This document shows positions 7,748-30,018 of a stretch of 32,000 nt of DNA, piece after piece; positions within the stretch are counted from its first letter, which is position 1; the number at the start of each line of letters is the position of its first letter. The position numbers were made by a program, and so were the translations under genes. Under the pieces are notes generated by a model, which saw only the letters and a program-made list of their open reading frames with translations, was not told where the DNA came from and did no database searches. Origin of the DNA: Nitrosopumilus cobalaminigenes (GTDB lineage Archaea; Thermoproteota; Nitrososphaeria; Nitrososphaerales; Nitrosopumilaceae). The DNA lies in NCBI RefSeq assembly GCF_013407145.1, contig NZ_CP026993.1:858590-890589 (forward strand), given 5' to 3'.

Positions 7748-7749
7748 TT

Positions 7750-8204: not shown

Positions 8205-8261
8205 GATTTTACTAAAAAGTAGCTGAATAAATAACTAGATAATTGTACATTTATCAAATAA

Positions 8262-13358: not shown

Positions 13359-13456
13359 GAGGATGTAATGTAAAAATGATATAAAAAATGGAAAACGTTT
13401 TCCCAAAGAAAATAATTTCTTATTCTTGTTTTATAGAATAAGAGACAATTTATGGT

Positions 13457-14554: not shown

Positions 14555-14692
14555 CTCACTGATGAATCGTCCATCGGGGTTAAATAGAAATTTTGAAAGA
14601 CAAATTACCTAACACACCGTGAGATTTGATGAGTAATCATCAAATTTCATGAATTTGTATTCTAAAAAAATAAAAAAGAAAAATCAATCACA

Positions 14693-15106: not shown

Positions 15107-15212
15107 AGTTTGAGGACTACATCACTGGTATATATACTATTGGTAATGAGTGGTAATGAGAGTCATTGAATGGTGTATAATGAGCAATTTTGGCGAGTAT
15201 AGACGTGAAGAA

Positions 15213-15282
15213 TGTTTGTTCAAATGCACAAACAGGTGTTTGTTCAAATGCACAAACAGGTGTTTGTTCAAATGCACAAACA
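15213..15282. repeat. 24-bp tandem repeat x2.9; each unit contains a palindrome (TGTTTG-N10-CAAACA)
   Basis: TGTTTGTTCAAATGCACAAACAGG is repeated at 15213, 15237 and 15261. The array is intergenic, ~55 nt upstream of the ATG at 15339. Confidence 0.9.
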
Positions 15283-15338
15283 TTTCAGGAAATCAAGAAG
15301 GATATTATATCAAATTCTTAATTCAAAAATTGTTCAAA

Positions 15339-15449
15339 ATGGATAAACGTGATGCAATGGTATTAGCAGGAATTTTTGTCGCCGGAGGAACGGTTGTAGG
15401 ATTGGTAGTTCTCTTGTCAAATGGGTTGATCAAAAATCCATTCATCTAA
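15339..15449 (+). CDS. possible tiny single-TM protein (36 aa)
   Basis: The internal ATG of track ORF 15150..15449 gives MDKRDAMVLAGIFVAGGTVVGLVVLLSNG. The upstream part of the track ORF is just the translated repeat. Confidence 0.3.
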   Translation: MDKRDAMVLAGIFVAGGTVVGLVVLLSNGLIKNPFI

Positions 15450-15490
15450 GAGATTAAGTTTAATATTCTAAATTAAAGAACTGAATATCT

Positions 15491-15715
15491 ATGAATTTTA
15501 TTACAAAAAAAGTCCTAGAAATGCAATACAAGAAACTAGATGATTCTAAAAAGAGATTAAATCAACATTTAGAGAAAAGGGAATCTCTAGTTAATTCTGA
15601 TTCTAAAAAAGAACTTGAAAAAATTGAAAAATATATTGAAATTTGGAAAAAGAATATTAAAAAAATAGAAAAAGAGATTAAGAAAATAGAAGACAAGGAA
15701 TTAAATTCTGAATAA
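15491..15715 (+). CDS. hypothetical K/E-rich coiled-coil protein (74 aa)
   Basis: ORF only. Confidence 0.4.
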   Translation: MNFITKKVLEMQYKKLDDSKKRLNQHLEKRESLVNSDSKKELEKIEKYIEIWKKNIKKIEKEIKKIEDKELNSE

Positions 15716-15747
15716 TTGGATTTTGAGGCTTGTTGTTGAATGAAATT

Positions 15748-15972: not shown

Positions 15973-16004
15973 TCATTGATTAGTTTTATTCCGAGGAATA
16001 TAGT

Positions 16005-16022
16005 TTATTCTTTATCGATAAA
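16005..16022. repeat. left copy of the target-site duplication (TTATTCTTTATCGATAAA)
   Basis: Identical to 30001..30018, and 19 bp long if 16004/30000 are included. The reverse complement reads F-I-D-K-E-stop, which is the aEF-2 C-terminus. Confidence 0.9.
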
Positions 16023-16060
16023 AATAGAATGCCCCCCGTTTAGGCGCTAAAACAGACAGG
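16022..16060 (+). repeat. outer left terminal inverted repeat (L1)
   Basis: AAATAGAATGCCCCCCGTTTAGGCGCTAAAACAGACAGG compared with the reverse complement of 29962..30000, AAATAGAATGCCCCCCTTTTACGCCTAATTTTAGACGGT. The first 16 nt are identical and roughly 70% match thereafter. Confidence 0.85.
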
Positions 16061-16111
16061 TAATTAGAAATCCATTTCTAACTTTAAATCATCTGAAAAT
16101 GAAAATATCTT

Positions 16112-16336
16112 ATGAAAACTTGGAAGGCATTAGTGATTTCTTCAAGTGTAATTATTGTTGCGAGTTTATTATTTTTTTATATGGTAAATTTATTGATGTT
16201 TTCTGAATCCTTTTCAGAACCAGGTAGTAGAGACAGAGATAAAATTCTCATTGGCGCGATTGGATGTCTTTTTTTTATTTTTATTGGAGTTGTTTCTCTT
16301 TTGTCTACTTTTAGATTCAGGAAATTTTCTTCATAA
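16112..16336 (+). CDS. small two-TM membrane protein (74 aa)
   Basis: The only ORF between the two left-end TIR copies. It has two hydrophobic helices. Confidence 0.45.
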   Translation: MKTWKALVISSSVIIVASLLFFYMVNLLMFSESFSEPGSRDRDKILIGAIGCLFFIFIGVVSLLSTFRFRKFSS

Positions 16337-16347
16337 GGTTCATCTTG

Positions 16348-16399
16348 AAATAGAATGCCTCCTTTCTAGGCAGGATTTTAGACGGTACTAGATGATTTT
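16348..16399 (+). repeat. second, internal left-end TIR copy (L2)
   Basis: AAATAGAATGCCTCCTTTCTAGGCAGGATTTTAGACGGTAC--TAGATGATTTT aligns over ~54 nt with the reverse complement of the right end, including the blocks ATTTTAGACGGTAC and TAGATGATTTT that L1 lacks. Confidence 0.8.
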
Positions 16400-16608
16400 C
16401 ATTTTTGGAACATTTAGGATCTTGTTATATTATTGAAGGTTCAATATACCCCATGGAAAAAAATTCAGAAGAATTTGAATCCTATGAAGAATATGATTGG
16501 ACTTCGCAAGAAGACCACGATTAATTCATAGGATGACAGATTTCTGTTTTTATTTCGCATGACATTCTGGGGCTATGGGTTTGGTATCCCTAGCCTTTTT
16601 TCATTTTC

Positions 16609-16647
16609 AAAAAGAATATTTCCACTATGCTTAAGTTCACACAAAAT
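16609..16647 (+). promoter_or_regulatory. shared promoter/leader box, copy 1 (core ATGCTTAAGTTCACACAAAAT)
   Basis: The 21-nt core at 16627..16647 is identical to 17866..17886, and the flanking AAAAAGA is also shared. The core ends 11 nt before the predicted start codon in both copies. Confidence 0.6.
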
Positions 16648-16658
16648 CCAGATAATTA

Positions 16659-17015
16659 TTGGGTTTTAAGAAAAGACGAAACAATCGTCATAACAACTAC
16701 AATAGAAAAAAAGGAGGAGCACGTCCAAAGTTAGCAGTTATTGGTGCTATCTCTTTAGTAATTGGAATTTTACTAATCCACTATGTCGGAGTGCCAGAGT
16801 TGCGTGCAGATAGAATGTCCGATAACCCTGCATTGATTGCAGGTTTTGTAGGCGTTGTGGGAGGAGTTTTGATGTTATTGCTTAGTTTGAGTAAAAGAAA
16901 TCAAGTTCGAGTGGGAAACGTAATAGATTCTGCAAGAGAGGCATTTAGAGATGATTGTATGTGTTGTAAATGCCAGAATTGTGACAGAAATCACAATCAC
17001 TGGACACATGATTAA
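16659..17015 (+). CDS. membrane protein with basic N-terminus, two TM helices and a Cys/His-rich C-terminus (118 aa)
   Basis: The TTG start aligns exactly with the ATG of 17898 relative to the shared promoter box. The C-terminus is CMCCKCQNCDRNHNHWTHD. Confidence 0.5.
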   Translation: MGFKKRRNNRHNNYNRKKGGARPKLAVIGAISLVIGILLIHYVGVPELRADRMSDNPALIAGFVGVVGGVLMLLLSLSKRNQVRVGNVIDSAREAFRDDCMCCKCQNCDRNHNHWTHD

Positions 17016-17033
17016 TTCATTTCAAATTAGATT

Positions 17034-17789
17034 TTAGGATTCACAACCGATTCCATCATTGTCCCTATCAAATCCATGAGGGTCACTTCCAATTACTCGG
17101 AAATTAGAATATCCAATATCCCCACAGTTTAGGTCTGGAGGATATGGTGGGATGCAGACATCAGGATATGATGGGTCACATTTTGGTGCATCATCAGTTG
17201 GTGGATTATAGTTTGATTCTTTTATTGTATAACACAACCCATCAGACCAGAGATACGGATAGTCGTTGTGACAACCATTTGATAGATATTCAGGCGAATT
17301 GTAACAGAATCCATTAGACCAATAGTATGGCTTGTTTACAGGACAATCAGGTTCTACCGTACTATGGCAGTAACCATCAGACCAGAGATACGGATTATTT
17401 TTGTGACATCCATTTTCTAAATAATCAGAGTACGAATCAGATGAACTAGTTCCTAAAAGATCATCTAGTAAATCATTTAGTTTTGCATTTTCTGTTTTTA
17501 GATTTTTATTTTCAGATTCTAAATCTAAAATCCTAGTTTCTAGGTTGTTTACCTTTTTTTGTAAAATAGAATTATCCTGATTTGGCATGTCAACTTTTAT
17601 GATATTTTGCTCAATTAGAAATGAGATAGATTCTCCAAAATCACTATCAGAAATATTCCCTTTTACCCAATAATCAGCCACTCCTTTAACCCATGCAGGA
17701 ATCTCTGATTGAGATTGTGCAGAAATTGAGGTAATTGAAATGCTAGAAATTACAATGCCAAGTATTGCAAATAATAGTAATTTTCTCAC
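17034..17789 (-). CDS. secreted protein with coiled-coil, three Cys-bracketed PY-WS-G repeats and a C-terminal Excalibur-like Ca-binding motif
   Basis: Signal peptide MRKLLLFAILGIVISSISITSISAQS. Three repeats follow: NGCHKNNPYLWSDGYCH, CPVNKPYYWSNGFCY and NGCHNDYPYLWSDGLCY. The C-terminal DRDNDGIGCE matches the Excalibur DxDxDGxxCE signature. Confidence 0.7.
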   Translation of the reverse strand: MRKLLLFAILGIVISSISITSISAQSQSEIPAWVKGVADYWVKGNISDSDFGESISFLIEQNIIKVDMPNQDNSILQKKVNNLETRILDLESENKNLKTENAKLNDLLDDLLGTSSSDSYSDYLENGCHKNNPYLWSDGYCHSTVEPDCPVNKPYYWSNGFCYNSPEYLSNGCHNDYPYLWSDGLCYTIKESNYNPPTDDAPKCDPSYPDVCIPPYPPDLNCGDIGYSNFRVIGSDPHGFDRDNDGIGCES

Positions 17790-17850
17790 AAATTATTCAA
17801 GACATACTGTAAATTAAGAATTTAAGAGAAAATCAGTTTTGGTTCTATGA

Positions 17851-17886
17851 AAAAAGAGTTCCAATATGCTTAAGTTCACACAAAAT
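17851..17886 (+). promoter_or_regulatory. shared promoter/leader box, copy 2
   Basis: See 16609..16647. The identical 21-nt core lies at 17866..17886, and the ATG at 17898 begins 11 nt after it. Confidence 0.6.
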
Positions 17887-17897
17887 TTATCAAAATT

Positions 17898-18116
17898 ATG
17901 ACATTTTGTTCTTATTGCGGTCATGAATTAGAAGCATACTCTAACTATTGCTCAGAATGCGGAAAACAAGATAAATCAAAAAAGGAAATTCTCCATGATT
18001 TCAATATAGGACAACAATCAGTTGAAAAAATGTTTGAGAAAGGAAATCGTTGTGAAAAATGCAGACATTTGATAACTGGAAAATTTTGCAAGAATTGTGG
18101 TTGTAAAAATAGTTAG
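17898..18116 (+). CDS. double zinc-ribbon protein (72 aa)
   Basis: CSYCGHEL...YCSECG and CEKCRHLI...FCKNCGC, giving two CxxC-Nn-CxxC ribbons. Confidence 0.55.
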   Translation: MTFCSYCGHELEAYSNYCSECGKQDKSKKEILHDFNIGQQSVEKMFEKGNRCEKCRHLITGKFCKNCGCKNS

Positions 18117-18232
18117 AATAATCTGCAATTACTATATGATTACTTTTGATCATACTCCGATAGAATACGATAATATCCCGAGTTAATGCGATTATACTCC
18201 GATATGACACAATTATGGTAATAATCGTGAGA

Positions 18233-18350
18233 GGCTCAGCTTTTGCTCGGGCACGATGGTTTTGCGATTATGGGTGGCTCAGCTTTTACTCAGGCACGAT
18301 GGTTTTGCGATTATGGGTGGCTCAGCTTTTACTCAGGCACGATTATATGG
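18233..18350. repeat. 43-bp tandem repeat, 2.6-2.7 copies, intergenic
   Basis: The unit GGCTCAGCTTTTACTCAGGCACGATGGTTTTGCGATTATGGGT occurs at 18233, 18276 and 18319 (partial). Copy 1 differs from copy 2 at 2 positions. The array lies between convergent genes. Confidence 0.9.
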
Positions 18351-18361
18351 AAAACAGGGCT

Positions 18362-18646
18362 CTATTGGAATTCTTTTTTCAACTCATCGTATTCTGCTTT
18401 TGTAATCTCGCCTTTTGCCAATCTAGTTTTTAGAATATTCAATGAATTGTTGTTTTGATCATTTTTGATTTTATCAGGATTCTCTTCAGTTACAGGGGGA
18501 TTGGATTGTAAATCAGACATGTCTTCTTGAAATGTGTTTTTTGATTTTCTGCTTGCTACAATTGCGATAACTACAATTATTGGAATTACAAATAAAATCA
18601 AAACTAGCAATTCAGTAGTGCCAATCATATTGACATATTGCATCAT
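18362..18646 (-). CDS. single-TM protein with C-terminal SHOCT domain (94 aa)
   Basis: N-terminal TM LLVLILFVIPIIVVIAIVA. The C-terminal LNILKTRLAKGEITKAEYDELKKEF fits the SHOCT consensus. Confidence 0.65.
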   Translation of the reverse strand: MMQYVNMIGTTELLVLILFVIPIIVVIAIVASRKSKNTFQEDMSDLQSNPPVTEENPDKIKNDQNNNSLNILKTRLAKGEITKAEYDELKKEFQ

Positions 18647-19275
18647 TTCTCAAATTCCCCCTTTAACTCATCATACTCTGACTTTGTAATCTCACCTTTT
18701 GCTAGTCTACTTTTTAGAATTCCTAAATTACTTAGATCATCATCTTTAGGATTGACATATGCTTTAGCAGATTGTGATTGTTTTGGTCTGGAATGATATG
18801 CTTTTCTTTTTTCGCAAGTCGTATGATGATTATGCAGTTCTTTACCGTTTTCTGCTAAATAATTACAGTATACACATCGCTCATAATCACTACGTCCTTT
18901 GAAGTAATCTACTACATGTGGTCTCCACATGTAAAATAGAACTATTACATCTATCACGATATATCCAATTGCAAATACATTTCCTCCAAATAGTGTCATT
19001 AGTTGAATTATCAAATTAACTATTGCAAGAATGATTACAATTACTCTACCACCACTTCTTCCGCTGAACAATGCACCAGCAATTGTAAACTCGATTAATG
19101 CTGCAATAACTATTGCAGATGCAATCCAACCTGCAAATTGACCAATTCCACCAAGAAATGAATTACCCATCATACTATTTGCAATATATCCAACCCCAAT
19201 TGCCAGAGCAAACAAGGTCAGCCCTTCAAGAATATACCAAACTCCTAGAAATGAAACGCCTAGAGGTCTACCCAT
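18643..19275 (-). CDS. multi-TM protein with Cys/His cluster and C-terminal SHOCT domain (210 aa)
   Basis: Four or so TM helices, then CVYCNYL...HNHHTTC, then the C-terminal LGILKSRLAKGEITKSEYDELKGEF. There is a 4-nt overlap with the downstream SHOCT gene. Confidence 0.7.
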   Translation of the reverse strand: MGRPLGVSFLGVWYILEGLTLFALAIGVGYIANSMMGNSFLGGIGQFAGWIASAIVIAALIEFTIAGALFSGRSGGRVIVIILAIVNLIIQLMTLFGGNVFAIGYIVIDVIVLFYMWRPHVVDYFKGRSDYERCVYCNYLAENGKELHNHHTTCEKRKAYHSRPKQSQSAKAYVNPKDDDLSNLGILKSRLAKGEITKSEYDELKGEFEK

Positions 19276-19458
19276 TAGATATCCCTCTTTTGAGAAATCA
19301 TAGAGTTTACACTAGAAATCTGAAACTCTGTCAAGTGAAGAAAATATGAATTTCTCAACATAGGGTTTGCCAAAAAATTGCATATAAACAATATTGTAGT
19401 TTAAGATGTTACAATTACGTTTACGAGTATTCATGCGTCAAACCCTGAATAAATCGAT

Positions 19459-19490
19459 GGCTCAGATTTTACTCAGGCACGATTGTATCA
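19459..19490. repeat. isolated distal copy of the first ~32 nt of the 43-bp repeat family
   Basis: GGCTCAGATTTTACTCAGGCACGATTGTAT compared with GGCTCAGCTTTTACTCAGGCACGATTATAT at 18319. Both are in the same orientation, on the far side of the two SHOCT genes. Confidence 0.8.
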
Positions 19491-19554
19491 AAAAGAGTAG
19501 AATTTGAGGGTGTTTTGTAGAAGAGTTTAGAAATCACTTTACAAATCATAAGTT

Positions 19555-20850
19555 ATGAATGTCCAAGACAAAAGAAAGAATGGGATAAACAACGATACAA
19601 TAATTTCTGAATTAGAAAAAATTCCCACTATCAATCAATATGAAGATGTTCTCATTCGATTAGCAGTTGACAAATTAACTGATTCTAATAATCTCTATTT
19701 TGCAAGGATTGATTATCTCTGTAAAGGAGATCCTTTACCTGAAGAATTTACAAAAAACTATGATGATATAATCATTACACAGTTAATCAAAAAACGTGGC
19801 GAGTTTATAGAATTTTTATCAAACTTACTGAAAAACGGTTCATCAAAAATTAATGAGATTACTGTCAGTGCATCAATGAAACAAAACTGGGATTTTGTAT
19901 CTAGACCAAGTAATTCATCTCACGGTTATGTAAAAAGTGATTTTCCTCATTTAGGTGCAGAAACTCAATTAGAATATGATCGAAATAGAGATCCTTATGC
20001 CCTAGTTTCGGGGAAAAACCTCCCTCCATTTCCAAATACATCTAGGGCAATAATTGATTTGTTTGATTTGCATCATGGAGGAAGAGAAGGAGGATGGTTA
20101 AATGAAAATAAATTGATTATAGATGTACCTGATTATCGGGTAGGAATAAAGAAACTTAGAATTGGAAAAAATAAAATTTCAGTAGAAATTAATTCAAAAT
20201 TATTAGATGAATCAAAATTAGTCTGTCAGTTTTACACAGAAAAGAAACAAGAGGTTTCATCACGCATACAAAATGGAATTTCTGAAATGTCTTGTGAGGA
20301 TATCCCTAAAGAAATTCTTGCAGTGATAAAAGAAAAGGAAACTGATGAGGTTCTAGATTTTTTTGATTACACTGTAAGTTGGGCAATGTCTGAAGAAGCA
20401 GTAGAAAAAGAGGTTCCTGAAGATGTGATTCGAGGCTGGATTAATGGGGGAGAAAATGAAACAGTGGAATTCAAGGAAGTGCTCAAACATGCAGATGATG
20501 TCATGAAGTCAGTAGTTGCTTTTGCCAATACAGAGGGGGGCGTAATTCTTGTTGGAGTATCTGATGATTGTTCTATACTGGGATATGATGTTCCAGTAGA
20601 AGATGTAAAAAATAGATTTGGCAGAATGGTTGCAGACAAATGTGATCCTCCCATAGAATTTGAAATAGAAGAAGCCGATTTGAATCCACGAATAATTGTG
20701 ATAAAAATTCCTAAAGGAAAAAGCAAGATCTATTCAGTAACTAATGGTGCAATCTATGTTAGAAGACATAGTTCGGATAGATTCATCAAAACTACTGAGT
20801 TGATGGAAGTTTTTGGAGATAAGTCTCGAAATGATAATAATTCTGTTTAA
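19555..20850 (+). CDS. protein with C-terminal AlbA_2 (Schlafen/divergent-AAA-type) putative DNA-binding domain (431 aa)
   Basis: GENETVEFKEVLKHADDVMKSVVAFANTEGGVILVGVSDD is the characteristic E.E.K....AFAN..GG.+..GV.D signature. The N-terminal ~290 aa are unassigned. Confidence 0.7.
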   Translation: MNVQDKRKNGINNDTIISELEKIPTINQYEDVLIRLAVDKLTDSNNLYFARIDYLCKGDPLPEEFTKNYDDIIITQLIKKRGEFIEFLSNLLKNGSSKINEITVSASMKQNWDFVSRPSNSSHGYVKSDFPHLGAETQLEYDRNRDPYALVSGKNLPPFPNTSRAIIDLFDLHHGGREGGWLNENKLIIDVPDYRVGIKKLRIGKNKISVEINSKLLDESKLVCQFYTEKKQEVSSRIQNGISEMSCEDIPKEILAVIKEKETDEVLDFFDYTVSWAMSEEAVEKEVPEDVIRGWINGGENETVEFKEVLKHADDVMKSVVAFANTEGGVILVGVSDDCSILGYDVPVEDVKNRFGRMVADKCDPPIEFEIEEADLNPRIIVIKIPKGKSKIYSVTNGAIYVRRHSSDRFIKTTELMEVFGDKSRNDNNSV

Positions 20851-20871
20851 GTAAACTATTTCAAAATTAAG

Positions 20872-21948
20872 TCAAGGTTGAATTTGTTCAAATAATTCCG
20901 GATAAAGTGTAATAATTATCGAAGCAATTTGTGGGAGAGATACAGATACTGAAATAATTATTCCGATAAGAGGACTCCACTCTATGACTTTATCTTTGAA
21001 AGAGATTCCAGTTAGAACATCATCTTTAGAATCATTTGTAGGGTATTTCTTTTTTAATATTTGAATTAATTCTACATTATTTAGATCAAATGAATCATAA
21101 ATTTCTTGTATATTGTCATTCATTGAACCATTCGAATTTGAAATTATTTGTGAAACAACCTCATCAGTCTTTTGAATTTGTAATTTCATGACCCTGCGCA
21201 AATATTTGTTGTAAGAATTAATCCCGAAATACAAATAATTAATTTTCTCAAATTCGTTTTCCAAATGTAAGCTTAATTCTAAACTCGATTTTGCCAGATA
21301 GTACCTATAATCAGTGTAAATCAACAGCATTAAAAATTTCCAAATTGCAGATAATGAAATAATTGCAGATGCTAATGTAATAACAAGGAAAATTGTTCGT
21401 AAATATAACGAATCATTTTCAGATAGTTGTACATCATAAGAACCCAACACCAAGGCCATCATTGCAAATATTATCATTATTGGAATGGATGCCATCAAAA
21501 CTTTACTTACCCATCTAAATTCAACTACAGTTTTCATGGTGCCATTTACATCAAAGAATACTCTTGCCGATATTGTCGTAGGGGAAAGGAAATATCGTAT
21601 TGGAGCTAAAGTAAAAATAATAGGATAAAAAATTACTCCCAAAAATGCAAAAACAACATATTCGTTATAAAATATTGAAGGCGCGTAAACAATCAGGGCA
21701 AATAAGAATGCAAATGCACTGACAGCTACAGATGGAATGGATATCAAATAGCGAGCAGGTCGTTCAAGGGCATCCTTTTTAATTTCATTATGAGGGGTTT
21801 TATCCTCATAAACTAATTTTAGAATCCATTTGATGTTTAATGTATTGTATATTTCTCGATTTATTTTTACAGGAAGTTTTTGTACATATGAAGGAATTTG
21901 TTTAATTTTTGAACCTAAGTTTAATTCCACAATTTTACATAAACTCAT
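20872..21948 (-). CDS. multi-TM membrane protein with cytoplasmic C-terminal region (358 aa), function unknown
   Basis: At least 6 hydrophobic helices in the central part. It lies immediately downstream of polB on the same strand, with an 11-nt gap. Confidence 0.65.
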   Translation of the reverse strand: MSLCKIVELNLGSKIKQIPSYVQKLPVKINREIYNTLNIKWILKLVYEDKTPHNEIKKDALERPARYLISIPSVAVSAFAFLFALIVYAPSIFYNEYVVFAFLGVIFYPIIFTLAPIRYFLSPTTISARVFFDVNGTMKTVVEFRWVSKVLMASIPIMIIFAMMALVLGSYDVQLSENDSLYLRTIFLVITLASAIISLSAIWKFLMLLIYTDYRYYLAKSSLELSLHLENEFEKINYLYFGINSYNKYLRRVMKLQIQKTDEVVSQIISNSNGSMNDNIQEIYDSFDLNNVELIQILKKKYPTNDSKDDVLTGISFKDKVIEWSPLIGIIISVSVSLPQIASIIITLYPELFEQIQP

Positions 21949-21959
21949 ACTTTAATATA

Positions 21960-23741
21960 TTAGATCGTAATTTTTTGTATATAATTTAATGAAATAGACA
22001 TTGAATCATTACATTCCTTTTGATCAATTGATTCAATTGTACCCAACCACAATCTTTTCCTATCCGCATTAAGATTAACTTCTCTAGTTATTGGTGCAAT
22101 CTTTCCAATGTCTTGTATCCTATCTGATAGTATGCTTGAACGTAATCTAGAATTTCTCAACACATTAAATTTGTAAAATAATTTCCCGTCTTTTTCAAAT
22201 GTATCCAAGTGTTCAATTTCCTTAGACCCTAATCGTCCCAAACCACGTTGTTTCCAAATCCCGTTAAATCGATAGAATCCATTTTGTAAATAGAAGGTAT
22301 CTTGACTCTCACCATCATATGAGAAATCGCCTAATCGTTTAGAATCTAAATTCAGTTTCTTGGTAGTACAGATTGAATCAGTCGCAAAGGCCACAATGTC
22401 TCCCTCAAGCCTGTTTCTAGTCACAAATTCGTACAATTTGGCACGAGTATACCCTGTGATGAATGCAAACATTACAGGATTAAACAAATTCCCCATTACA
22501 CCATTGATCTTTTGGCCAGTCTTCCCATAAATTGAATTTAAGATAATTTTGATTGGTTGCTCTAATGGATTATTTTCTTTCTTTAGTTTCTGTCTTTTTT
22601 GATACAAAGATTGAATGAATTTTCTGTATGGATAAATATCAGATGTACTGATAAATTGATAACCTTCAAGAATCCTGTAAAGATTTTTTTTGCAGGCTTG
22701 GAGTTCTGATAACGTACAATACGTTACAAATTTCCCTGAAGGGTACAATATGACATTATTTGTTTTAAATGGGAATGGTGCCACTATACTATCATCTGGA
22801 ATATCACATAATACTTTGAAGAATCCCAACTTTGTATCTGCGTGTATTGATTTTCTTTTAATCCATTTACCTTTAGATAAATCTGGAAAGTGGGCAATGG
22901 CATCAGGGTATGCAGAGTTGATATCATAAAGATAGGCCTTGCCAATGTATCCTCGCTTGATTAATTCAATTCGTCCTCCAAAATATGACTTGAATGCTAA
23001 CTCTTGAATTGGATAAGGAGTATCAACGAATCTAGGTAGATTGATCCCATTGTTGATCAGAACTTTTTCTGCCAAATATCCTGCACTGGTCCATTTGGCA
23101 GGATAAAATGAAAATGCATTGCTAAATAGTGTAATCCATTTTTCAGATAATTCTTTTGTAAATTTACAATCTTGTATACAATAGTTTCTAATTTTTTTCT
23201 TGTTGTGATTGTAAAATCGTAATGTAAATTCTTTACGCTTTTCTTTCATAGAGAGATATTCTGAAGATAATTCTCCAATGTTTTTCTGATATGCATTACT
23301 TAGAGAACCTCCAAAGAATTGCATTATATCAAAAAACAATACTGAATGATGACCTTTCTTGATTCGAAGAGATTTGCCAGGAAAATATTCTAGATGGTAA
23401 TCCCCCCACCAGAAATCTAATTTTCCAGTGAAGCGATATCGATACAGTTCTGAGCCTAGCAGTTTGAGGATAACTTCGGCATCATAGGATAGATTATAGA
23501 AAAAGTTCCATGAACCGTGATATTTTTTACAAAATAGCCATTTTATCACGGATTCAGGTGTGATTTTGTCTAAATATCGCCCATCAGAGTCCGCAATTAG
23601 AAAGATATCTCCTTTGTAGGTCTCAGTGTCTAAGGCATGAATTTGTCGTAATTTAGAATGTGCAGAGTTGCGATTTTGAGGCCTTTTGGTGTAGACCTTG
23701 GATAAATCCCGGCACTCTGTTACGGGGAAGGATTCTGCCAT
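21960..23741 (-). CDS. polB: family B DNA polymerase, protein-primed type (pPolB)
   Basis: ExoI is ALDTETY (D38/E40), ExoII is YNLSYD (D87) and ExoIII is YCIQD (Y187/D191). YFGG lies at residues 253-256. Motif A is LYDINSAYP (D273), motif B is KIILNSIYGKTG (K398) and motif C is VAFATDSI (D455). At 593 aa it is similar in size to phage phi29 pol. Confidence 0.9.
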   Translation of the reverse strand: MAESFPVTECRDLSKVYTKRPQNRNSAHSKLRQIHALDTETYKGDIFLIADSDGRYLDKITPESVIKWLFCKKYHGSWNFFYNLSYDAEVILKLLGSELYRYRFTGKLDFWWGDYHLEYFPGKSLRIKKGHHSVLFFDIMQFFGGSLSNAYQKNIGELSSEYLSMKEKRKEFTLRFYNHNKKKIRNYCIQDCKFTKELSEKWITLFSNAFSFYPAKWTSAGYLAEKVLINNGINLPRFVDTPYPIQELAFKSYFGGRIELIKRGYIGKAYLYDINSAYPDAIAHFPDLSKGKWIKRKSIHADTKLGFFKVLCDIPDDSIVAPFPFKTNNVILYPSGKFVTYCTLSELQACKKNLYRILEGYQFISTSDIYPYRKFIQSLYQKRQKLKKENNPLEQPIKIILNSIYGKTGQKINGVMGNLFNPVMFAFITGYTRAKLYEFVTRNRLEGDIVAFATDSICTTKKLNLDSKRLGDFSYDGESQDTFYLQNGFYRFNGIWKQRGLGRLGSKEIEHLDTFEKDGKLFYKFNVLRNSRLRSSILSDRIQDIGKIAPITREVNLNADRKRLWLGTIESIDQKECNDSMSISLNYIQKITI

Positions 23742-24037
23742 ATTGCATCAGGTATTGATACTTGGTTTCCTCTACGTCGTTGGGATAGTTGAGAGCGAAT
23801 CTGGTTGTACTTTAATCCGGGAAAATTATTTCTGATTTGTCTAATGTAATTGTGATATCGTCTTAACTTTCCAGAACGTGTAAGATTTGCTTTTCTTTTT
23901 TTAATCAGAGGTTTTTGTTTTCTATCTATCTTTTCTAACTTCTTTTTAATTTGAAAACGAAGTTCTTTGACAAGTTTGGTATTTGGGAATATTTTTAATG
24001 CTTGTAATTGATCAAGCAAGTCTTGTTTTGTAGCCAT
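23720..24037 (-). CDS. small basic protein (105 aa), possible nucleic-acid binding
   Basis: Start chosen at M37 of the track ORF (MATKQDLL), which avoids overlap with 24057..24392. Arg/Lys-rich (KKRKANLTRSGKLRRYHNYIRQIR...QRRRG). It overlaps the polB start by 22 nt. Confidence 0.5.
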   Translation of the reverse strand: MATKQDLLDQLQALKIFPNTKLVKELRFQIKKKLEKIDRKQKPLIKKRKANLTRSGKLRRYHNYIRQIRNNFPGLKYNQIRSQLSQRRRGNQVSIPDAIWQNPSP

Positions 24038-24056
24038 GATAAAAAAGAAAAAGAAG

Positions 24057-24392
24057 TCAGAGAATAATCTCTGATCTTCTAATTGGACGATTGTTTTTAG
24101 ATAATCCCAAGTATGTTTTGAGTTGGAATTTTGTATCTGCAACAATCTTTTTGTGTTTTACTAGTTCATTCCAGGACTTTAGTAGAGAACTATTGTGTGA
24201 TTCATGTGACTTTAGTGGAAGTAATCGGTCTTCCCATGAATCATGTATTCTTTGTTGTACGTGAACATTTGTAGTTAATTCTGAATCCATTGTTTCAGTT
24301 TTTACTACTTTACATTCAAGTACATCTGGTTTGTCAGGATTTTTGGAATGACATTCACCCCATTTGATAAAAGAGATGCTTTCAGTACTCAT
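24057..24392 (-). CDS. hypothetical protein (111 aa)
   Basis: ORF in the polB-upstream operon, with a 4-nt overlap with the preceding gene. Confidence 0.5.
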   Translation of the reverse strand: MSTESISFIKWGECHSKNPDKPDVLECKVVKTETMDSELTTNVHVQQRIHDSWEDRLLPLKSHESHNSSLLKSWNELVKHKKIVADTKFQLKTYLGLSKNNRPIRRSEIIL

Positions 24393-24619
24393 TTTTTATC
24401 TCCCTTTGAAGGAGAGAGTTTGATGAATTTTTCTCCCTTTTCCTGTACTAGTTCAACCTTGAACTTTTTGGTTCTCCCATCAATACAGTTTTCAAGTGCT
24501 ACTCTTGGAAGAGTGACTGTGTTTGTTGTATTGTTTTTAGAGATTTTTCGCAGACCAAATGATGTGGTCGTTGAATTTGTAGTCCTTGGTTCACATGTTT
24601 TTGTGGATTTTTTCTCCAT
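24389..24619 (-). CDS. small protein, possible AbrB/SpoVT-like DNA-binding fold (76 aa)
   Basis: VTLPRVALENCIDG..KKFKVELVQEKGEKFIKLSP resembles the swapped-hairpin AbrB pattern. It is the first gene of the operon leading to polB. Confidence 0.45.
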   Translation of the reverse strand: MEKKSTKTCEPRTTNSTTTSFGLRKISKNNTTNTVTLPRVALENCIDGRTKKFKVELVQEKGEKFIKLSPSKGDKK

Positions 24620-24675
24620 GAATAATATAAAACAGATTTTAATATAGGCTATTTCTAACGATATATGTAAGATAT

Positions 24676-25317
24676 ATGGCCAATTATAGACGAGAACTAT
24701 CTAAAATTGAGCAAAAAGATGTCCATTCCAGATACAAAATACATACAGATGATTATGGAGGAATTTTCACCAAAGACAAACGTCGAAAGTTACTTGGTCT
24801 TAAACAAAAACAAGGAAAGTATCATGAAGATACTGCGGATTTTTGGTATGATGTGAGGTCTAGTGTAAAAAGTGGTTTGATGGATCTAGAGTTATTTTTT
24901 GAAGTAGCCGATAAAAATCAAATCAAAGATGTACTTTATGATGCAGAACAAAAAGCACAATTAGATTTACTAAAACAAAAACTTGAACTTAACAAACAAT
25001 ATGAACTAGAAAGACAAATTCCATCCTTCACACGTGTCTTATCTGTATTATTTCAAAAATATTACAAATCTCGCAAGTACAAATTATCTACAGGTGAAAC
25101 TAGAAAATATTCTGAACATGTTGAAGAAGATGATACATGGAGGGCAGAAATTATTGAAAAAATGATCAACACTTGTATTATTTATTTAAGAGATCATAAT
25201 TTGATTTCTTCAAAAGCACATGAACGATTGACTGATGAATTTATTGATATGGTTAATGTTGAAATTGCTAGAGGAACAAAACTGTCTTTAAATGAGAGAG
25301 TAAAAGGTTCTGTTTAA
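24676..25317 (+). CDS. hypothetical protein (213 aa)
   Basis: Clean ORF, divergent from the polB operon across a 56-nt AT-rich spacer. No recognised domain. Confidence 0.6.
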   Translation: MANYRRELSKIEQKDVHSRYKIHTDDYGGIFTKDKRRKLLGLKQKQGKYHEDTADFWYDVRSSVKSGLMDLELFFEVADKNQIKDVLYDAEQKAQLDLLKQKLELNKQYELERQIPSFTRVLSVLFQKYYKSRKYKLSTGETRKYSEHVEEDDTWRAEIIEKMINTCIIYLRDHNLISSKAHERLTDEFIDMVNVEIARGTKLSLNERVKGSV

Positions 25318-25321
25318 AAAA

Positions 25322-26935
25322 CTATTTTTCATCATGATCAATACTGTGTTTTGAATAATATTTCTCTAGAAAATTTAACTTTATGTTTTCTTCTTTGATA
25401 CACCTTATTACAACCATTAACCCTTCATGTGAAAAACCTATTTCACCTTTTTGATTTTTACTATAAAGATGAGGATACTGTTTCAAAATTTGCTTATATT
25501 TTACCTCATTTACAAATTCATCATTGAATATTTTTTTATAATCTTCAGAAAGATAATTATCTTCCAACCACTTTGCTTTTTCATCGGATAAATGCATAAT
25601 TTTTAGTGGTTCGCTTAATTCTTTGTATTGTTTTACAATTTCTGCGATATTTTTAATTTTATTTTTCAAAATTTTTCCAAAATCAGGATCATAAAATCCT
25701 GCAGACATTATTGAAACAAACAAACGTTTGCTAAATTTCTGTATCGTATCCATATCTAGAGGGTAATGAGCCAGAAACTTGGTCATTTTACCATCGACAT
25801 AGTGACCAAAGTCAATATGTAAAAATTTCTCCCCTTTAGAAACATCAAATCGTAGATTATAATCGATTTTTTTCTCATCTAAAAGATCAAAACGAATTAC
25901 AGCGCTTCCTCTTGAATTTTGAGTTACATTCTGATAGTAAAAACTATCTTCGGTATTGAGTTCCTTTGATATTCCAAATAAGAAAAATTCAGGAATAGTA
26001 ATTTGAGATGTATGATCATTGTCAGATTCGTATTCAAATGGATATAGCGCAGAAAAATACATCCAAGGTAAAGGAGTATAATTTGCATGAAAAAGAGATA
26101 CATGCATCATACTTAGAAAATTTTCTTGCTGGTATGATTTTTCAAGTAACATTTTACAGGATTTGATAAATAATTCAGGAGTCTTGACTTTTGGATTAGG
26201 TTCATTTTCATATCTACTTGATAAATTGAATGAAATCGTCTTTTCATTTTTCAAATCATAAAATATGCAACCCAGAAACACATCAGGACTAAATTTTGAT
26301 TTATTGGATTTTGAATAAATATAGAAATAACTGAATGCAAAACAATTTTGTATTTCTTTTGATTTGTTTTTTAATTCCAAGATTTTTTGAATAGAAGTAC
26401 GATTTTTATCAATTATTTCACAATCAATTTCATCATTATTTTCATAAAGTATCAATACATTAGAAAATAAATTAAACATGTTTTTTCCGGAATTGTTTTG
26501 TTGATATAATTTAATTTCAGAATCTGCATATTCTTTAAGAAAATCAATTATTTTTTTGAAATTTTTTGAATTTATTTTTTCAACATGAACACAAGGCTTT
26601 CGCCGCTTGTCAAAGTGCTCATAAGTATACATTTCAACATCGGATTTGGCAGTATGATCTGAAATTTTATCCATGTAGACTCCATCGATATTTGCAAATT
26701 GATTATATTGTAAAGCAAAAAGTGCACCTAATTCTGAGCAATCAACTGTTATTCGTTCATTGTTTTTTTCTAAAAAAATATGTCCAAAATTCTTTGTTGT
26801 TTCAAGTTCCCCTTTTTCATTTTTCGCCATAGCGATAGTCCCGCTTCTGTCAACTACGATGTACCCTTGTGAAAGTAGTTCTTTGAATTCTTCCTCGGTT
26901 TTAATTTTAATTAGTTTCTTACTTTTTTTATCCAA
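25322..26935 (-). CDS. large hypothetical protein (537 aa), no recognisable domain
   Basis: Long uninterrupted ORF in AT-rich DNA, which is unlikely by chance. The antisense ORFs 26566..26832 and 26760..27008 are shadows. Confidence 0.7.
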   Translation of the reverse strand: MDKKSKKLIKIKTEEEFKELLSQGYIVVDRSGTIAMAKNEKGELETTKNFGHIFLEKNNERITVDCSELGALFALQYNQFANIDGVYMDKISDHTAKSDVEMYTYEHFDKRRKPCVHVEKINSKNFKKIIDFLKEYADSEIKLYQQNNSGKNMFNLFSNVLILYENNDEIDCEIIDKNRTSIQKILELKNKSKEIQNCFAFSYFYIYSKSNKSKFSPDVFLGCIFYDLKNEKTISFNLSSRYENEPNPKVKTPELFIKSCKMLLEKSYQQENFLSMMHVSLFHANYTPLPWMYFSALYPFEYESDNDHTSQITIPEFFLFGISKELNTEDSFYYQNVTQNSRGSAVIRFDLLDEKKIDYNLRFDVSKGEKFLHIDFGHYVDGKMTKFLAHYPLDMDTIQKFSKRLFVSIMSAGFYDPDFGKILKNKIKNIAEIVKQYKELSEPLKIMHLSDEKAKWLEDNYLSEDYKKIFNDEFVNEVKYKQILKQYPHLYSKNQKGEIGFSHEGLMVVIRCIKEENIKLNFLEKYYSKHSIDHDEK

Positions 26936-27017
26936 TTGCTTATTTCAATCAAATTATGTATTTCAATTTAATTATCCAAGTAAAACATTATTTGTCAATA
27001 AAATATGAAGATAATAC

Positions 27018-27809
27018 ATGTGGTTTGATAATCCTTTGTTACCGCCTTTACTAGTTCTTGTTGCTATTGGTATTGCTGTTGGATATATGATAGGATTTGT
27101 TGATAATGATGTAGATTCTGCAAGTGAATTGGGGATTTATCTTGCTGCAATTTCAATTGGATTGACAGGAGCAGTTTTCATATTGCAAAGTAAAACTAGC
27201 CATGAAGTTAAAGATATTGTTAAGAAAATGGATGATGAAAAAAAGGATAGAAAAGAATATGTCCTCAGAGGATTGGTAAACGCGTTTAGAGAAACACGTT
27301 ATAATCTGCAATTGATGCGTTCAGAATTACTGACATTGGCACGATCCAATGGAGTAAATGGAAATAAGCAAACAATAGAAAACAATTGGAAAATTATTAA
27401 CAATTCAGGAGTTGACAGAATTCAATTTTTAATAACATTGTCTCATGATGTTATTTCAACCTCTAAATTAGATCAAATTGAAACTGTCAAAAATATTATG
27501 AAATCCGAATATGATTCAGATTATAACACCATGAGTACTATAGTATCGTTCTTGTTAACTCAATCAGATTATGTATTTAGAGATGATCTTAAAGAATTAC
27601 GACTTAAAATGGCAAAAGAAGAAATTTCAAAATTAGTATCAGAATTAAAAAGTGGGGCGGATGAAAATTCATTAAGTTTTCAGAGAAATAAAAGGCGGTG
27701 GGAATCCTATCTATATTTACCAACAGATGATGAAATCAAAAATGAGTGTGAATCTAAACTTGAAGCAACTTCTTCTGAAGACAGCACTCTGCCAGATTTT
27801 GAACCATGA
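27018..27809 (+). CDS. two-TM N-terminal anchor plus helical cytoplasmic domain protein (263 aa)
   Basis: TM helices LLPPLLVLVAIGIAVGYMIGF and LGIYLAAISIGLTGAVFIL. The 3' end overlaps the 3' end of cas1 by 56 nt (convergent). Confidence 0.6.
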   Translation: MWFDNPLLPPLLVLVAIGIAVGYMIGFVDNDVDSASELGIYLAAISIGLTGAVFILQSKTSHEVKDIVKKMDDEKKDRKEYVLRGLVNAFRETRYNLQLMRSELLTLARSNGVNGNKQTIENNWKIINNSGVDRIQFLITLSHDVISTSKLDQIETVKNIMKSEYDSDYNTMSTIVSFLLTQSDYVFRDDLKELRLKMAKEEISKLVSELKSGADENSLSFQRNKRRWESYLYLPTDDEIKNECESKLEATSSEDSTLPDFEP

Positions 27810-28770
27810 CCTTAGCAACAGTAATCTCTTGAACTGATTTCAGACCTGATTTTGTCTTCTTTCCGTGCCTAAAATCATACTTTCTTTCCTGTGAAAATTG
27901 CCTTTCTAATAATTCTAAAAACCTTCTAATCAAATCGTATTCAATTACTACAGTTCCATCTTTGGTGTAACTATACTCTTTGAGTTTGATTCTATTTCTC
28001 TTCTCTTTGTTATTTGCAATTTTATACACAGAATAGTCCACTAACCATCTGAATGGCTCAATCAAATCATAAACTAGGGGTTGAAATCCTGTGTGAGTTT
28101 TATGCATAAATCCAAAGTAAGGATCAAGACCAATTCCACAGACAAATTTTGATATCTCACCTGCCAAAACAGAATACCCATAATTCAGTAAAGCATTGAT
28201 GATGTCAGTTGCATCATTTTTGGCAATTCTGATAGAGGATTGATTCCTTGAATGAAATCCATATTTTTCCGGGATGAATTTGGCATATTCTCTAAAGTAG
28301 ATTATGGCGGCAGATGATTCTCTATCAGGTAATGAAGTAATGCCACTACCAATTAGTTTGAGCAGTTTTAGTTGAGATTCTTTTTTGGCCGAGATGATTT
28401 GTTTTCTCAGATATCCACATTTTGACTCGTTTCGAAACGTATCATATTGTGCTATTCGGTATTTTGTTCCAGTTAGAGAATCCATCATGCCATTACAGAA
28501 AGTGACGGGTTTTCCGTGATTATCAAGTAAAATGACATTTCGGTTATTTTGAGAAAGTAGCGATAATGCCTCAGTGGAGACGTAGCCCTTTCCTGAAATA
28601 ACAATTTTCTCATATGGCATGTTTTTGACAAACCATTCCTCAATTTCAGGCTCAGAAAATGGGTCGTGATTTGATTTTAGGATAATTTTAGAATTTTTAA
28701 CAGAAATAGAATGACCATAGCCTTTGAGGAATTTTATGTTATAGTGGTTTTTTTGACCTTTAAGAGTCAA
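27754..28770 (-). CDS. cas1: Cas1 family integrase (casposase), solo
   Basis: ESSAAIIYF (E151), the signature INALLNYGYSVLAGEI....GLDPYFGFMHKT (H223) and PLVYDLIEPFR (D235/E238), and an N-terminal beta-rich domain. 338 aa. There is no cas2 or CRISPR in the window. Confidence 0.9.
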   Translation of the reverse strand: MTLKGQKNHYNIKFLKGYGHSISVKNSKIILKSNHDPFSEPEIEEWFVKNMPYEKIVISGKGYVSTEALSLLSQNNRNVILLDNHGKPVTFCNGMMDSLTGTKYRIAQYDTFRNESKCGYLRKQIISAKKESQLKLLKLIGSGITSLPDRESSAAIIYFREYAKFIPEKYGFHSRNQSSIRIAKNDATDIINALLNYGYSVLAGEISKFVCGIGLDPYFGFMHKTHTGFQPLVYDLIEPFRWLVDYSVYKIANNKEKRNRIKLKEYSYTKDGTVVIEYDLIRRFLELLERQFSQERKYDFRHGKKTKSGLKSVQEITVAKVMVQNLAECCLQKKLLQV

Positions 28771-29665
28771 ATTCTTTAATTTGATATTCTACATCTTCAA
28801 ACGGATTTTCTAATTGATTAAGCTGATTGTAAATCAGAGTAATTGCAATGTTCAAACAATTCCAAGCATTCTCTTGAGTCACTTCTCTTTTTTTCCTATG
28901 AACAATATCATTTCTTAATTTTCTTAATTTTGTAAAGCATTCATATCCTTTTGAATCAAGTTTCTCAGAAAACGTAAAGGCCTCAATATAATGACTAGTG
29001 CTCCAAGAATGATGATTTTTTAATGCTTGTCTTTCCTCCTTTGTTCTCTTCAAATCTTTGACAAATTTTTCCCAAACTCTTTCTATAACACTTTCAATAA
29101 CAATCCAGGAATTAAGAAAAGATATGCTAAACAATTCATCTTGATACATTCCACCAGATTCACCAATTATCAACAAATCATTTTTGAAACTATCATTGTC
29201 AAGGAAACGAGCTGATTGATCAATTAACATTTCCATAAGATGTTTTTGAATTGGTTGTCTTTCAATTGTTGACCAATATTCATAGTCTACATCATCTTCA
29301 CGTTTACTTTCTTGAATTACCCGTAAAGATTTACTCAAACTACCTGCAGCTACAACATAATCCCAATCTTCTTTCCAAGTAAATCCACAGATATCATTTT
29401 TTGTAATAAATCTGGCCCGATGAAATTTTGTGATAAATACTGCAAAAAGTACATTGAGAAATTCAAATGCTTCATCTTCGTTTTTCCCAATAGGACAAAC
29501 AAAACAATCATCAGTTACTAGAACTCGCAATCCTTCGGATGTAGTAGTGTCGATAACAATGGGTCTTTTAATCGTCGATATTCGTGGTAGTTTCTCAGGA
29601 TTTGCTTCATAAAGTTGAGATGGTGGATAAAAAAATGTGCCAAAACCAATCGTTCTTCCAGTCAT
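28760..29665 (-). CDS. protein with C-terminal HEPN-like domain (R-x4-H), 301 aa
   Basis: KLRKLRNDIVHRK (R251-N-D-I-V-H256, nt 28898..28915) sits in a helical C-terminal half. The stop overlaps the cas1 start by 11 nt, and the start overlaps the upstream ORF stop by 4 nt. Confidence 0.6.
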   Translation of the reverse strand: MTGRTIGFGTFFYPPSQLYEANPEKLPRISTIKRPIVIDTTTSEGLRVLVTDDCFVCPIGKNEDEAFEFLNVLFAVFITKFHRARFITKNDICGFTWKEDWDYVVAAGSLSKSLRVIQESKREDDVDYEYWSTIERQPIQKHLMEMLIDQSARFLDNDSFKNDLLIIGESGGMYQDELFSISFLNSWIVIESVIERVWEKFVKDLKRTKEERQALKNHHSWSTSHYIEAFTFSEKLDSKGYECFTKLRKLRNDIVHRKKREVTQENAWNCLNIAITLIYNQLNQLENPFEDVEYQIKEFDS

Positions 29666-29889
29666 GTATTGTCTCTAATCTTAGTCATTTTTACAGATTT
29701 CCTAGTTAATTCATCAATTGCACTCTGAATAATAGAATGATCTCTATTTGCCATTTGACTTAACATTTGAGCAGTTTCTTTCAAATCTTGATTGTTAAAT
29801 CCTTGAGCACTTTGCTTCCAATTCTCAGCATAGAATTTTAGCATATTTTGATAGTTGGACAATATCTCAATTGCCTTGGCTTTTGTCAT
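29662..29889 (-). CDS. small helical protein (75 aa), first gene of the cas1 operon
   Basis: ORF beginning ~110 nt inside the right TIR terminus. A TATA-like CTTTAAG lies ~30 nt upstream. Confidence 0.5.
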   Translation of the reverse strand: MTKAKAIEILSNYQNMLKFYAENWKQSAQGFNNQDLKETAQMLSQMANRDHSIIQSAIDELTRKSVKMTKIRDNT

Positions 29890-29946
29890 TACTTTGTCAT
29901 AATGAACATCATGATCTTAAAGAATTTGCAACAAAATAGAATCTGA

Positions 29947-30000
29947 AAAATCATCTAGTGTACCGTCTAAAATTAGGCGTAAAAGGGGGGCATTCTATTT
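29947..30000 (-). repeat. right terminal inverted repeat (R)
   Basis: The reverse complement is AAATAGAATGCCCCCCTTTTACGCCTAATTTTAGACGGTACACTAGATGATTTT. It pairs with L1 (16022) and, over a longer span, with L2 (16348). Confidence 0.85.
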
Positions 30001-30018
30001 TTATTCTTTATCGATAAA
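30001..30018. repeat. right copy of the target-site duplication; also the last 5 codons plus stop of aEF-2
   Basis: TTATTCTTTATCGATAAA is identical to 16005..16022. Confidence 0.9.

Follow-up and report, generated by a model that had tools for sequence, protein, structure and literature searches.

The gene for archaeal elongation factor 2 (aEF-2; ef-2) of Nitrosopumilus cobalaminigenes ends at the border of a block of about 14 kb which encodes, among other products, a Cas1-family protein and a family B DNA polymerase (PolB) of the protein-primed type, and which is very likely to be a family 1 casposon. The block was first recognized in a prediction made from the sequence alone and is described here within a stretch of 32,000 nucleotides, the window (contig NZ_CP026993.1, positions 858,590 to 890,589 of the forward strand; assembly GCF_013407145.1), in which the coordinates of Table 1 are counted. 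It was compared with a set of 84 loci, numbered L001 onwards, on contigs of related genomes, metagenome-assembled genomes (MAGs) and metagenomes.

The element proper extends from 16020 to 30002 (13,983 bp) and is bracketed by a 19-bp exact direct repeat, TTTATTCTTTATCGATAAA, at 16004–16022 and 30000–30018. Only these two copies are found in the window, and 100 shuffles gave no chance match with up to two mismatches permitted, in accordance with the original prediction of an exact 18–19-bp direct repeat around some 14 kb. The 18-nt inverted termini, AAAAATAGAATGCCCCCC, are identical at 16020–16037 (+) and 29985–30002 (−), with a chance expectation of 0.02 when three mismatches are permitted; the inverted ends thus stand as first described, and only their count of 16 identical terminal nucleotides has to be amended, to 15 beyond the direct repeat or 18 with the shared AAA. 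Past the 18 nt the terminal arms are degenerate, with an identity in gapped alignment of 80% over 40 nt and 76% over 60 nt. The interior of the outer left end (La) is similar to the ends of other casposons (L003, L017 and L057), and a second copy of the left end (Lb), in the same orientation and absent from the earlier description, is located 326 bp inside La. The GC content of the element is not distinguishable from that of its flanks, and neither a match to Rfam nor a tRNA gene was found anywhere in the window.

The block holds 18 non-overlapping open reading frames (ORFs) of at least 72 aa, Cas1 and PolB included, for which the earlier figure of about 20 was a fair estimate. Beyond the right end (R), the right copy of the direct repeat contains the stop codon and the last five codons of the aEF-2 gene.

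Table 1. Features of the element and of its integration target, in window coordinates.
Feature	Coordinates	Strand	Remarks
Distal copy of the probable 13-bp target-site duplication	16007–16019	−	
Outer left terminal inverted repeat (La)	16020–16064	+	18-nt terminus perfect
Segment between the two left ends, 326 bp	16020–16345	.	Probable solo end of a second tandem casposon
Membrane ORF within the La–Lb segment, 74 aa	16112–16336	+	
Inner left end (Lb)	16346–16403	+	Terminus decayed (TGAAATAGAATGCCTCC)
Cargo block: small membrane, zinc-ribbon and SHOCT proteins	16659–19275		16659–17015 (+), 17034–17789 (−), 17898–18116 (+), 18362–18646 (−), 18643–19275 (−)
Cargo protein with C-terminal Schlafen/AlbA_2 domain, 431 aa	19555–20850	+	PF04326, E 4e-23
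Cargo protein with long hydrophobic stretches, probably membrane, 358 aa	20872–21948	−	Without family match
Protein-primed-type family B DNA polymerase, 593 aa	21960–23741	−	PF03175, E 4e-26 ('organellar and viral'); phrog_11768, E 7e-60
Small core gene 1, basic, candidate terminal protein	23720–24145	−	Directly upstream of polB, overlaps polB start
Small core gene 2, 111 aa	24057–24392	−	45–53% identity in 8 related loci
Small core gene 3, 76 aa	24389–24619	−	35–55% identity in 9 related loci
Cargo trio	24676–25317, 25322–26935, 27018–27809	+, −, +	213, 537 and 263 aa; without family match
Cas1-family casposase, 338 aa	27754–28770	−	PF01867, E 4e-41; Cas1 domain only
HEPN-like cargo protein, 301 aa	28760–29665	−	Adjoins Cas1; HEPN Pfam matches weak, all below cut-off; PADLOC CARF_HEPN, E 8e-5
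Cargo ORF at right end, 75 aa	29662–29889	−	
Right terminal inverted repeat (R)	29945–30002	−	
ef-2-proximal copy of the probable 13-bp duplication	30003–30015	−	ATCGATAAAGAAT in gene sense; leader TTT at 30016–30018
aEF-2 gene, 3′ part, integration target	30001–32000	−	Full EF-G/EF-2 Pfam domain set; frame open to window edge

Casposase, polymerase and core genes

The Cas1 of the window is 100% identical to a protein that NCBI attributes to N. cobalaminigenes, and 85–86, 83–84 and 81–82% identical to the proteins of N. sediminis AR2, N. adriaticus NF5 and N. koreensis AR1, respectively, which are the hosts of the type family 1 casposons (PMC4046053, PMC6563490); among the next 119 Cas1 matches listed, every organism-named one is thaumarchaeal, the remainder being unnamed metagenome proteins. 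The AR1 casposase has been characterized in vitro, and mutation of R113, K117, K184, Y197 or Y234 lowers its activity (PMC8464041). All five residues, as well as the catalytic E205, H223 and D235, are invariant in the Cas1 alignment. The protein is compact, without a helix–turn–helix (HTH) or zinc-binding fusion, its best match among solved structures is the M. mazei casposase 6opm, and it passes the generic model TIGR00287 only, all eight subtype- or variant-specific models remaining far under their cut-offs. Both the identification of a Cas1 homologue with its active site and its expected placement with casposases and not with the Cas1 of clustered regularly interspaced short palindromic repeats (CRISPR) systems are therefore upheld, the latter by pairwise identity to the family 1 enzymes, by 6opm and by the failure of the CRISPR-subtype models. 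Within the 32 kb of the window, the gene lies outside any CRISPR-cas locus: Pfam scans of the ORFs returned no cas2 or other cas gene, and repeat and tandem-repeat searches no CRISPR-like array of spaced repeats, as had been claimed.

In other genomes, the casposon Cas1 is found in a reduced state. In L006–L011 only its first 75–170 residues remain, as in L008, where the fragment (5164–5562) adjoins ef-2 (2372–4391) and forms a fusion with the C-terminal domain of a protein homologous to window ORF 17034–17789. Judging from these truncated genes, decayed casposons at the ef-2 site are seemingly frequent.

The polymerase gene inside the element matches PF03175, the profile named in the original prediction, and its product displays the ExoI (DTE), ExoII (NLSYD), ExoIII (YCIQD), A (DINSAYP) and B (KIILNSIYG) motifs. 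Motif C (22375–22389, residues 452–456) reads FATDS and not DTDS, an alanine replacing the first aspartate of the canonical YxDTDS, and the claim that all Exo and Pol motifs are present holds for the other five but not for this one. Since FATDS is invariant in all four family 1 polymerases aligned (those of the window, L001, L003 and L015), the alanine is a trait of the family and not a sign of damage. The enzyme shares 59–68% identity with its counterparts in other family 1 casposons, and its nearest viral relatives are those of His1, which is the closest, of Acidianus bottle-shaped viruses and of small tectivirus-like phages; the polymerases of His1 and of the Acidianus viruses have been described as protein-primed (PMC4046053; record annotation). 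On the basis of its sequence, PolB would fall into the protein-primed class, as does that of family 1 casposons. No significant sequence match to the PDB was obtained.

Family 1 has been defined in the literature by cas1, a protein-primed polB and three small genes, accompanied by variable cargo. In the window, three small ORFs are located upstream of polB and are syntenic in L001, L003, L015–L017, L032, L034 and L069. The conserved part of the first starts near the ATG at 24037, which is likely to be the true start (105 aa), and this gene, with 54–73% identity in L001, L003, L015, L032, L034 and L069, always adjoins polB; the assignment of the small gene beside polB to a terminal protein is a published inference (PMC4046053). 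The five-gene core is thus kept across relatives, and the cargo is mostly specific to each element.

The ef-2 target and its occupancy

In N. koreensis, an apparent repeat of 21–22 bp corresponds experimentally to a 13-bp duplication, ATTGATAAAGAGT, beside a leader ending in TTT, in which A1, A11 and T13 are indispensable and the ruler is the ATAA of positions 5–8 (PMC8464041). Read in the sense of ef-2, the window contains GAA TTT, followed by ATCGATAAAGAAT and then by AAAAATAGAATG..., and its alignment to the N. koreensis site reveals that the leader TTT, A1, A11, T13 and the ATAA ruler at positions 5–8 have all been kept at the 3′ end of ef-2, the cleavage positions being those predicted by analogy. 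With the same determinants in place, the 19-bp repeat resolves into TTT, 13 bp and AAA; by analogy with N. koreensis, the true target-site duplication is probably the 13-bp ATCGATAAAGAAT (gene sense), and the additional TTT and AAA would be common to the element ends and flanks by chance. The original prediction had taken the 18–19 bp as the duplication itself, which is correct for the length of the repeat but probably not for that of the functional duplication. Independent support for 13 bp comes from natural tandem junctions, in which exactly 13 nt separate two casposon ends (L001, a Nitrosarchaeum MAG, and the metagenomic L055, L052, L048, L054 and L079). The 18-mer AAAAATAGAATGCCCCCC was found in 62 metagenome stretches, mostly at clear casposon ends, many of which abut ef-2 3′ ends, so that homologous elements carry the same 18-nt termini beside the same target.

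The site is polymorphic. As had been anticipated for a relative without the element, L018 is unoccupied: the last 581 nt of its ef-2, 92.6% identical in nucleotides to the window, terminate with one copy of TTTATCGATAAAGAATAA, the two genes encode an identical C-terminus (...EFIDKE*), and ef-2 is separated from the Cys-rich gene of the left flank (96% amino-acid and 93.5% nucleotide identity to its window homologue) by 200 bp, with no casposon between them. The sequence of this distal flank differs from that of the window. That the 200 bp might be a casposon relic was considered and rejected, as they match a small chromosomal ORF in L019, L020 and L033 and not casposon DNA.

Tandem occupation of the target has precedents. 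In N. adriaticus NF5, two casposons, NitNF5-C1 and NitNF5-C2, lie in tandem at ef-2 (PMC6563490). Facing ends exactly 13 nt apart are seen in L055 (3949–3997), L001 (~9610–9640), L052, L048/L075, L054, L079 and L032 (~340–370). Such junctions account for about nine of some 45 genuine casposon ends, a frequency at which family 1 tandem arrays at ef-2 seem to be much commoner than the single published case (NF5). In L033 (1–800), a lone casposon end with one membrane/SHOCT ORF (~480 bp) lies between the 3′ end of ef-2 and chromosomal DNA, with no second end or duplication visible within this interval, a solo-end remnant analogous to 16020–16345 of the window. L015 and L016, which encode the closest metagenomic Cas1 (89–90% identity), contain two end-like sequences that point the same way and have some 10 kb between them (~240–300 and 10223), the Cas1-side end abutting an ef-2-like 3′ end (...LIDNQ*) detached from the body of the gene; this may be another rearranged array or a target fragment that was carried along.

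Identity of the element and its double left end

The protein domains, the ends, the target, the core genes, the identity of Cas1 and the unoccupied site of L018 concur in the interpretation already put forward in the original prediction: a casposon of family 1 has inserted at the 3′ end of the N. cobalaminigenes aEF-2 gene and makes up block 16020–30002, a reading to which we assign a probability of about 0.93. Its anatomy, its homologies, the conserved target determinants and its polymorphic presence are observed directly. Some points count against it. PolB is devoid of the first aspartate of the canonical DTDS, although this is family-wide; the distal flank is unlike that of L018 (35 bp in the window versus 200 bp before the Cys-rich gene), which is therefore not a base-for-base empty site; metagenome scans provided no relative with the same cargo for comparison; and integration, excision and protein priming are deduced, as are the catalytic steps, the stagger of 13 bp, any current activity and a history of tandem insertion followed by deletion.

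By homology to the N. koreensis enzyme, the casposase would recognize the leader TTT and ATCGATAAAGAAT at the end of ef-2 and join the element by its 3′ ends (termini AAAAATAGAAT...) to two positions staggered by 13 bp, the putative integration of the element ends into the target. Gap repair would duplicate the 13 bp, as a result of which ef-2 would retain its stop codon. The element would be copied by its own protein-primed PolB, the inverted ends serving as origins and the conserved small basic protein encoded just upstream of polB being the likely primer, and the remainder would constitute a variable cargo of HEPN-like, Schlafen-like, SHOCT, membrane and uncharacterized proteins.

It is conceivable, if rather unlikely, that the casposon is no longer able to move and persists as a fossil island of cargo genes. 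The window contains one copy only, metagenome scans yielded no near-identical one, the inner left end is decayed and the truncated Cas1 genes beside ef-2 in L006–L011 suggest that decay is frequent. On the other hand, the five core genes, those of Cas1 and PolB included, have kept their full length and their key residues, neither the outer termini nor the duplication show any imperfection, and a relative whose ef-2 is 92.6% identical has the site unoccupied.

The original prediction described the element as intact, which remains appropriate for the core genes and the outer ends; as a simple single element it does not hold, given that the left end is double. Lb and R have long exact blocks in common (ATTTTAGACGGTAC and CTAGATGATTTT), longer than those between La and R, and a repeat search returned an inverted Lb–R match of 41 nt at 83%. 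Gapped identity over 40 nt is 80% for La–R and 78% for Lb–R, compared with 82, 98 and 98% for the genuine pairs of L001, L069 and L032, respectively; with both values similar and within the genuine range, the repeats alone cannot name the original partner of R. An earlier notion based on ungapped identity, that La is clearly foreign to R, was dropped when gapped alignment revealed the two left ends to be equally similar to it. The sequence following La is unrelated to that following Lb, which excludes a simple duplication, and the 326-bp segment between them has no homologue in the 84 loci. Complete relatives (L001, L032 and L069) have one end copy per side and no internal extra end, and precedents for tandem or solo ends exist in L001, L055 and L033. 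A metagenome scan for the interior of the Lb/R-type repeat (ATTTTAGACGGTAC..TAGATGATTTT) found nothing.

Two ends in the same orientation, relatives without an extra end, unrelated DNA behind the two ends and the tandem and solo precedents favour a composite block, which probably consists of a full casposon and the solo end of a second, tandem insertion, of which a deletion left only the outer end. Lost in this deletion would have been the greater part of one element, together with the middle duplication and two terminal bases of Lb. Weighing against such a history, La–R identity (80%) is as high as that of Lb–R and falls within the range of true pairs (L001, 82%), and no middle duplication is recognizable beside Lb. 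A degenerate candidate for the latter (~6/10 matches) was not distinguishable from chance and is not claimed.

The same two points, together with the perfect La terminus abutting the duplication, would suit a single simple casposon with La and R as its ends and Lb as an internal or subterminal repeat, for instance a second binding site for the casposase or the polymerase, or the product of a local rearrangement. We consider this doubtful, as no internal extra end is present in L001, L032 or L069, the 326 bp following La do not resemble the sequence following Lb as a simple duplication would, the exact blocks shared by Lb and R are longer than those of La and R, and tandem and solo ends are common at the ef-2 target.

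It is improbable that the outer ends derive from two different casposons, La from one and R with the whole core from the other, in a chimera that may still be mobile as a unit because the family 1 casposase needs only few terminal nucleotides. If this were true, casposons could exchange ends and pick up adjacent DNA by means of the solo ends that tandem insertions and deletions leave behind; their highly variable cargo could have been gained in this way, and host genes beside ef-2 could possibly be mobilized.

Very little weight is given to the proposal that a virus or plasmid with a protein-primed polymerase, similar to His1 or to spindle-shaped viruses, integrated here and merely carries Cas1. 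The viral polymerases nearest to PolB are those of His1 and of the Acidianus bottle-shaped viruses, and several of the uncharacterized or membrane proteins of the cargo could in principle be virion components; however, PHROGs gave no capsid, packaging or other virus-family match except for the polymerase and the helicase-like Schlafen domain, and the gene core, the ends and the target are of the family 1 casposon type. It is most improbable that the block is what is left of a CRISPR-Cas adaptation module, or that its Cas1 belongs to a CRISPR-Cas locus beyond the window. In favour are the passing of generic Cas1 models and the NCBI name ('CRISPR-associated endonuclease Cas1'); against it stand a window devoid of cas2, other cas genes and arrays, a Cas1 that falls under every subtype-specific cut-off and is 81% identical to a proven casposase, and its position with a protein-primed polB in an insertion that inverted ends and a duplication delimit.

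Cargo, chromosomal flank and relation to known casposons

Beside the Schlafen-domain and HEPN-like proteins, the latter encoded next to Cas1 also in L015/L016, the cargo with a family match includes two SHOCT proteins and one zinc-ribbon protein, as well as a secreted protein rich in Cys whose C-terminus is Excalibur-like. For four cargo proteins of 213–537 aa there is no match in Pfam, PHROGs, NCBIfam or PADLOC, and no homologue of the trio at 24676–27809 was found in related loci. Other casposons have only the SHOCT motifs and the 251-aa protein in common with this cargo, homologues of this protein and of the SHOCT ORFs being located just inside the casposon ends in L074, L008 and L033.

A 43-bp unit (TGGGTGGCTCAGCTTTTACTCAGGCACGATGGTTTTGCGATTA) is present in three tandem copies in a convergent intergenic gap (18228–18356), and a fourth copy, 65% identical, is found upstream of the Schlafen-domain gene, within the divergent promoter region (19454–19496). 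The array has neither an Rfam match nor a significant RNA fold (z 0.1 and −1.4), and may be a putative regulator-binding array. A 50-nt direct repeat, 80% identical and ending in ...TATGCTTAAGTTCACACAAAAT, occurs at 16598–16647 and 17837–17886, directly upstream of ORFs 16659–17015 and 17898–18116; it has the appearance of a promoter or 5′ region that was duplicated, and a similar motif, CTTAAGTTT, recurs upstream of ORFs in L033.

On the chromosomal side left of the element, the stretch 15213–15284 comprises 2.9 copies of a partly palindromic unit of 24 bp (TGTTTGTTCAAATGCACAAACAGG), two of them identical and the third partial, and forms nested inverted repeats in the doubtful ORF 15150–15449, about 700 bp left of the insertion. 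The window shares with L018 only ~13386–15449 and the Cys-rich gene, the stretch 15450–15742 being absent from L018. L017 is collinear with ~1–8800 of the window, as judged by gene order and ORF sizes and not by DNA alignment, and its casposon follows soon after. The region in between (8887–15742) varies with respect to both L017 and L018, and the neighbourhood of ef-2 thus seems to be a general hotspot of gene turnover. At its far end, ORF 8887–10200 (437 aa) contains 10.3 perfect copies of a 24-bp unit (9431–9677), a head-to-tail coding array with a unit of eight residues, and has a sub-threshold match to the C-terminal beta-helix domain of phage T4 gp5.

Family 1 casposons, their ef-2 target and the biochemistry of the casposase were described between 2014 and 2021 (PMC4046053, PMC6563490, PMC8464041); published elements measure 6.4–19.4 kb, most of them are located at ef-2, and Schlafen-like and HEPN cargo has already been reported. 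No paper on the N. cobalaminigenes element was found in the literature, the sole one mentioning both terms treating the Cas1 of another strain. The element is a further example of a well described family, of which the type, the target and the integrase were already known.

Among its described relatives, NitNF5-C2 of 'Ca. Nitrosopumilus adriaticus' NF5 (13,115 bp; PMC6563490) resembles it in its AAAAATAGAATGCCCCCCGTTTA... terminus, its target at the 3′ end of ef-2, its similar size and its tandem context. While both tandem elements of NF5 are complete, the presumed second element of the window is reduced to a 326-bp solo end, and while NitNF5-C2 carries two Cas4 homologues, the cargo of the window comprises HEPN-like, Schlafen-like, SHOCT and several uncharacterized proteins; the best-matching NF5 Cas1, encoded by one or other of NitNF5-C1 and NitNF5-C2, is 83–84% identical. 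NitAR1-C1 of 'Ca. N. koreensis' AR1 (PMC4046053, PMC8464041) has a Cas1 81% identical to that of the window, with all mutation-tested residues conserved, and a 13-bp site with the same leader TTT, A1, A11, T13 and ATAA ruler; its AAAAATAGAAT terminus and its five core genes are likewise shared, and its cargo, too, includes a Schlafen-like gene. It differs in its size (8.2 kb versus 14 kb), in most of its cargo, which is unrelated, in its inverted repeats, near-perfect over 68 nt where those of the window are perfect over 18 nt only, and in two positions of its site (ATTGATAAAGAGT versus ATCGATAAAGAAT). NitEve-C1 of 'Ca. Nitrososphaera evergladensis', also of family 1, likewise has a HEPN-family gene adjoining Cas1, but it is intergenic and not at ef-2, has another terminus and resides in a soil thaumarchaeon.

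Likeness to family 2 casposons (AciBoo-C1, the M. mazei elements and 6opm) extends to site-specific integration by Cas1 with a 13–14-bp duplication, to tandem arrays at one target and to the best solved-structure match, whereas the C-terminal HTH of Cas1, an RNA-primed-type polymerase, a tRNA gene target and the HNH and HTH core genes are features of family 2 that are not present here. With the CRISPR-Cas adaptation module the element has in common a homologous integrase, the logic of a leader and a duplicated site, and a ruler mechanism (PMC8464041); it is distinguished by the absence of Cas2, of an array and of a subtype Cas1 signature, and by the nature of the integrated DNA, which is a whole 14-kb element and not a spacer.

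With the present characterization, the complete family 1 casposons gain a further member, hosted by a marine ammonia oxidizer available in culture; existing knowledge of casposons is left unchanged. As all experimentally defined target determinants are conserved, N. cobalaminigenes could serve as a host for in vivo tests of casposon mobility. The double left end and the tandem and solo junctions of metagenomic loci suggest that repeated use of ef-2 followed by decay is the norm for family 1, a behaviour that parallels the repeated insertion of spacers at the CRISPR leader.

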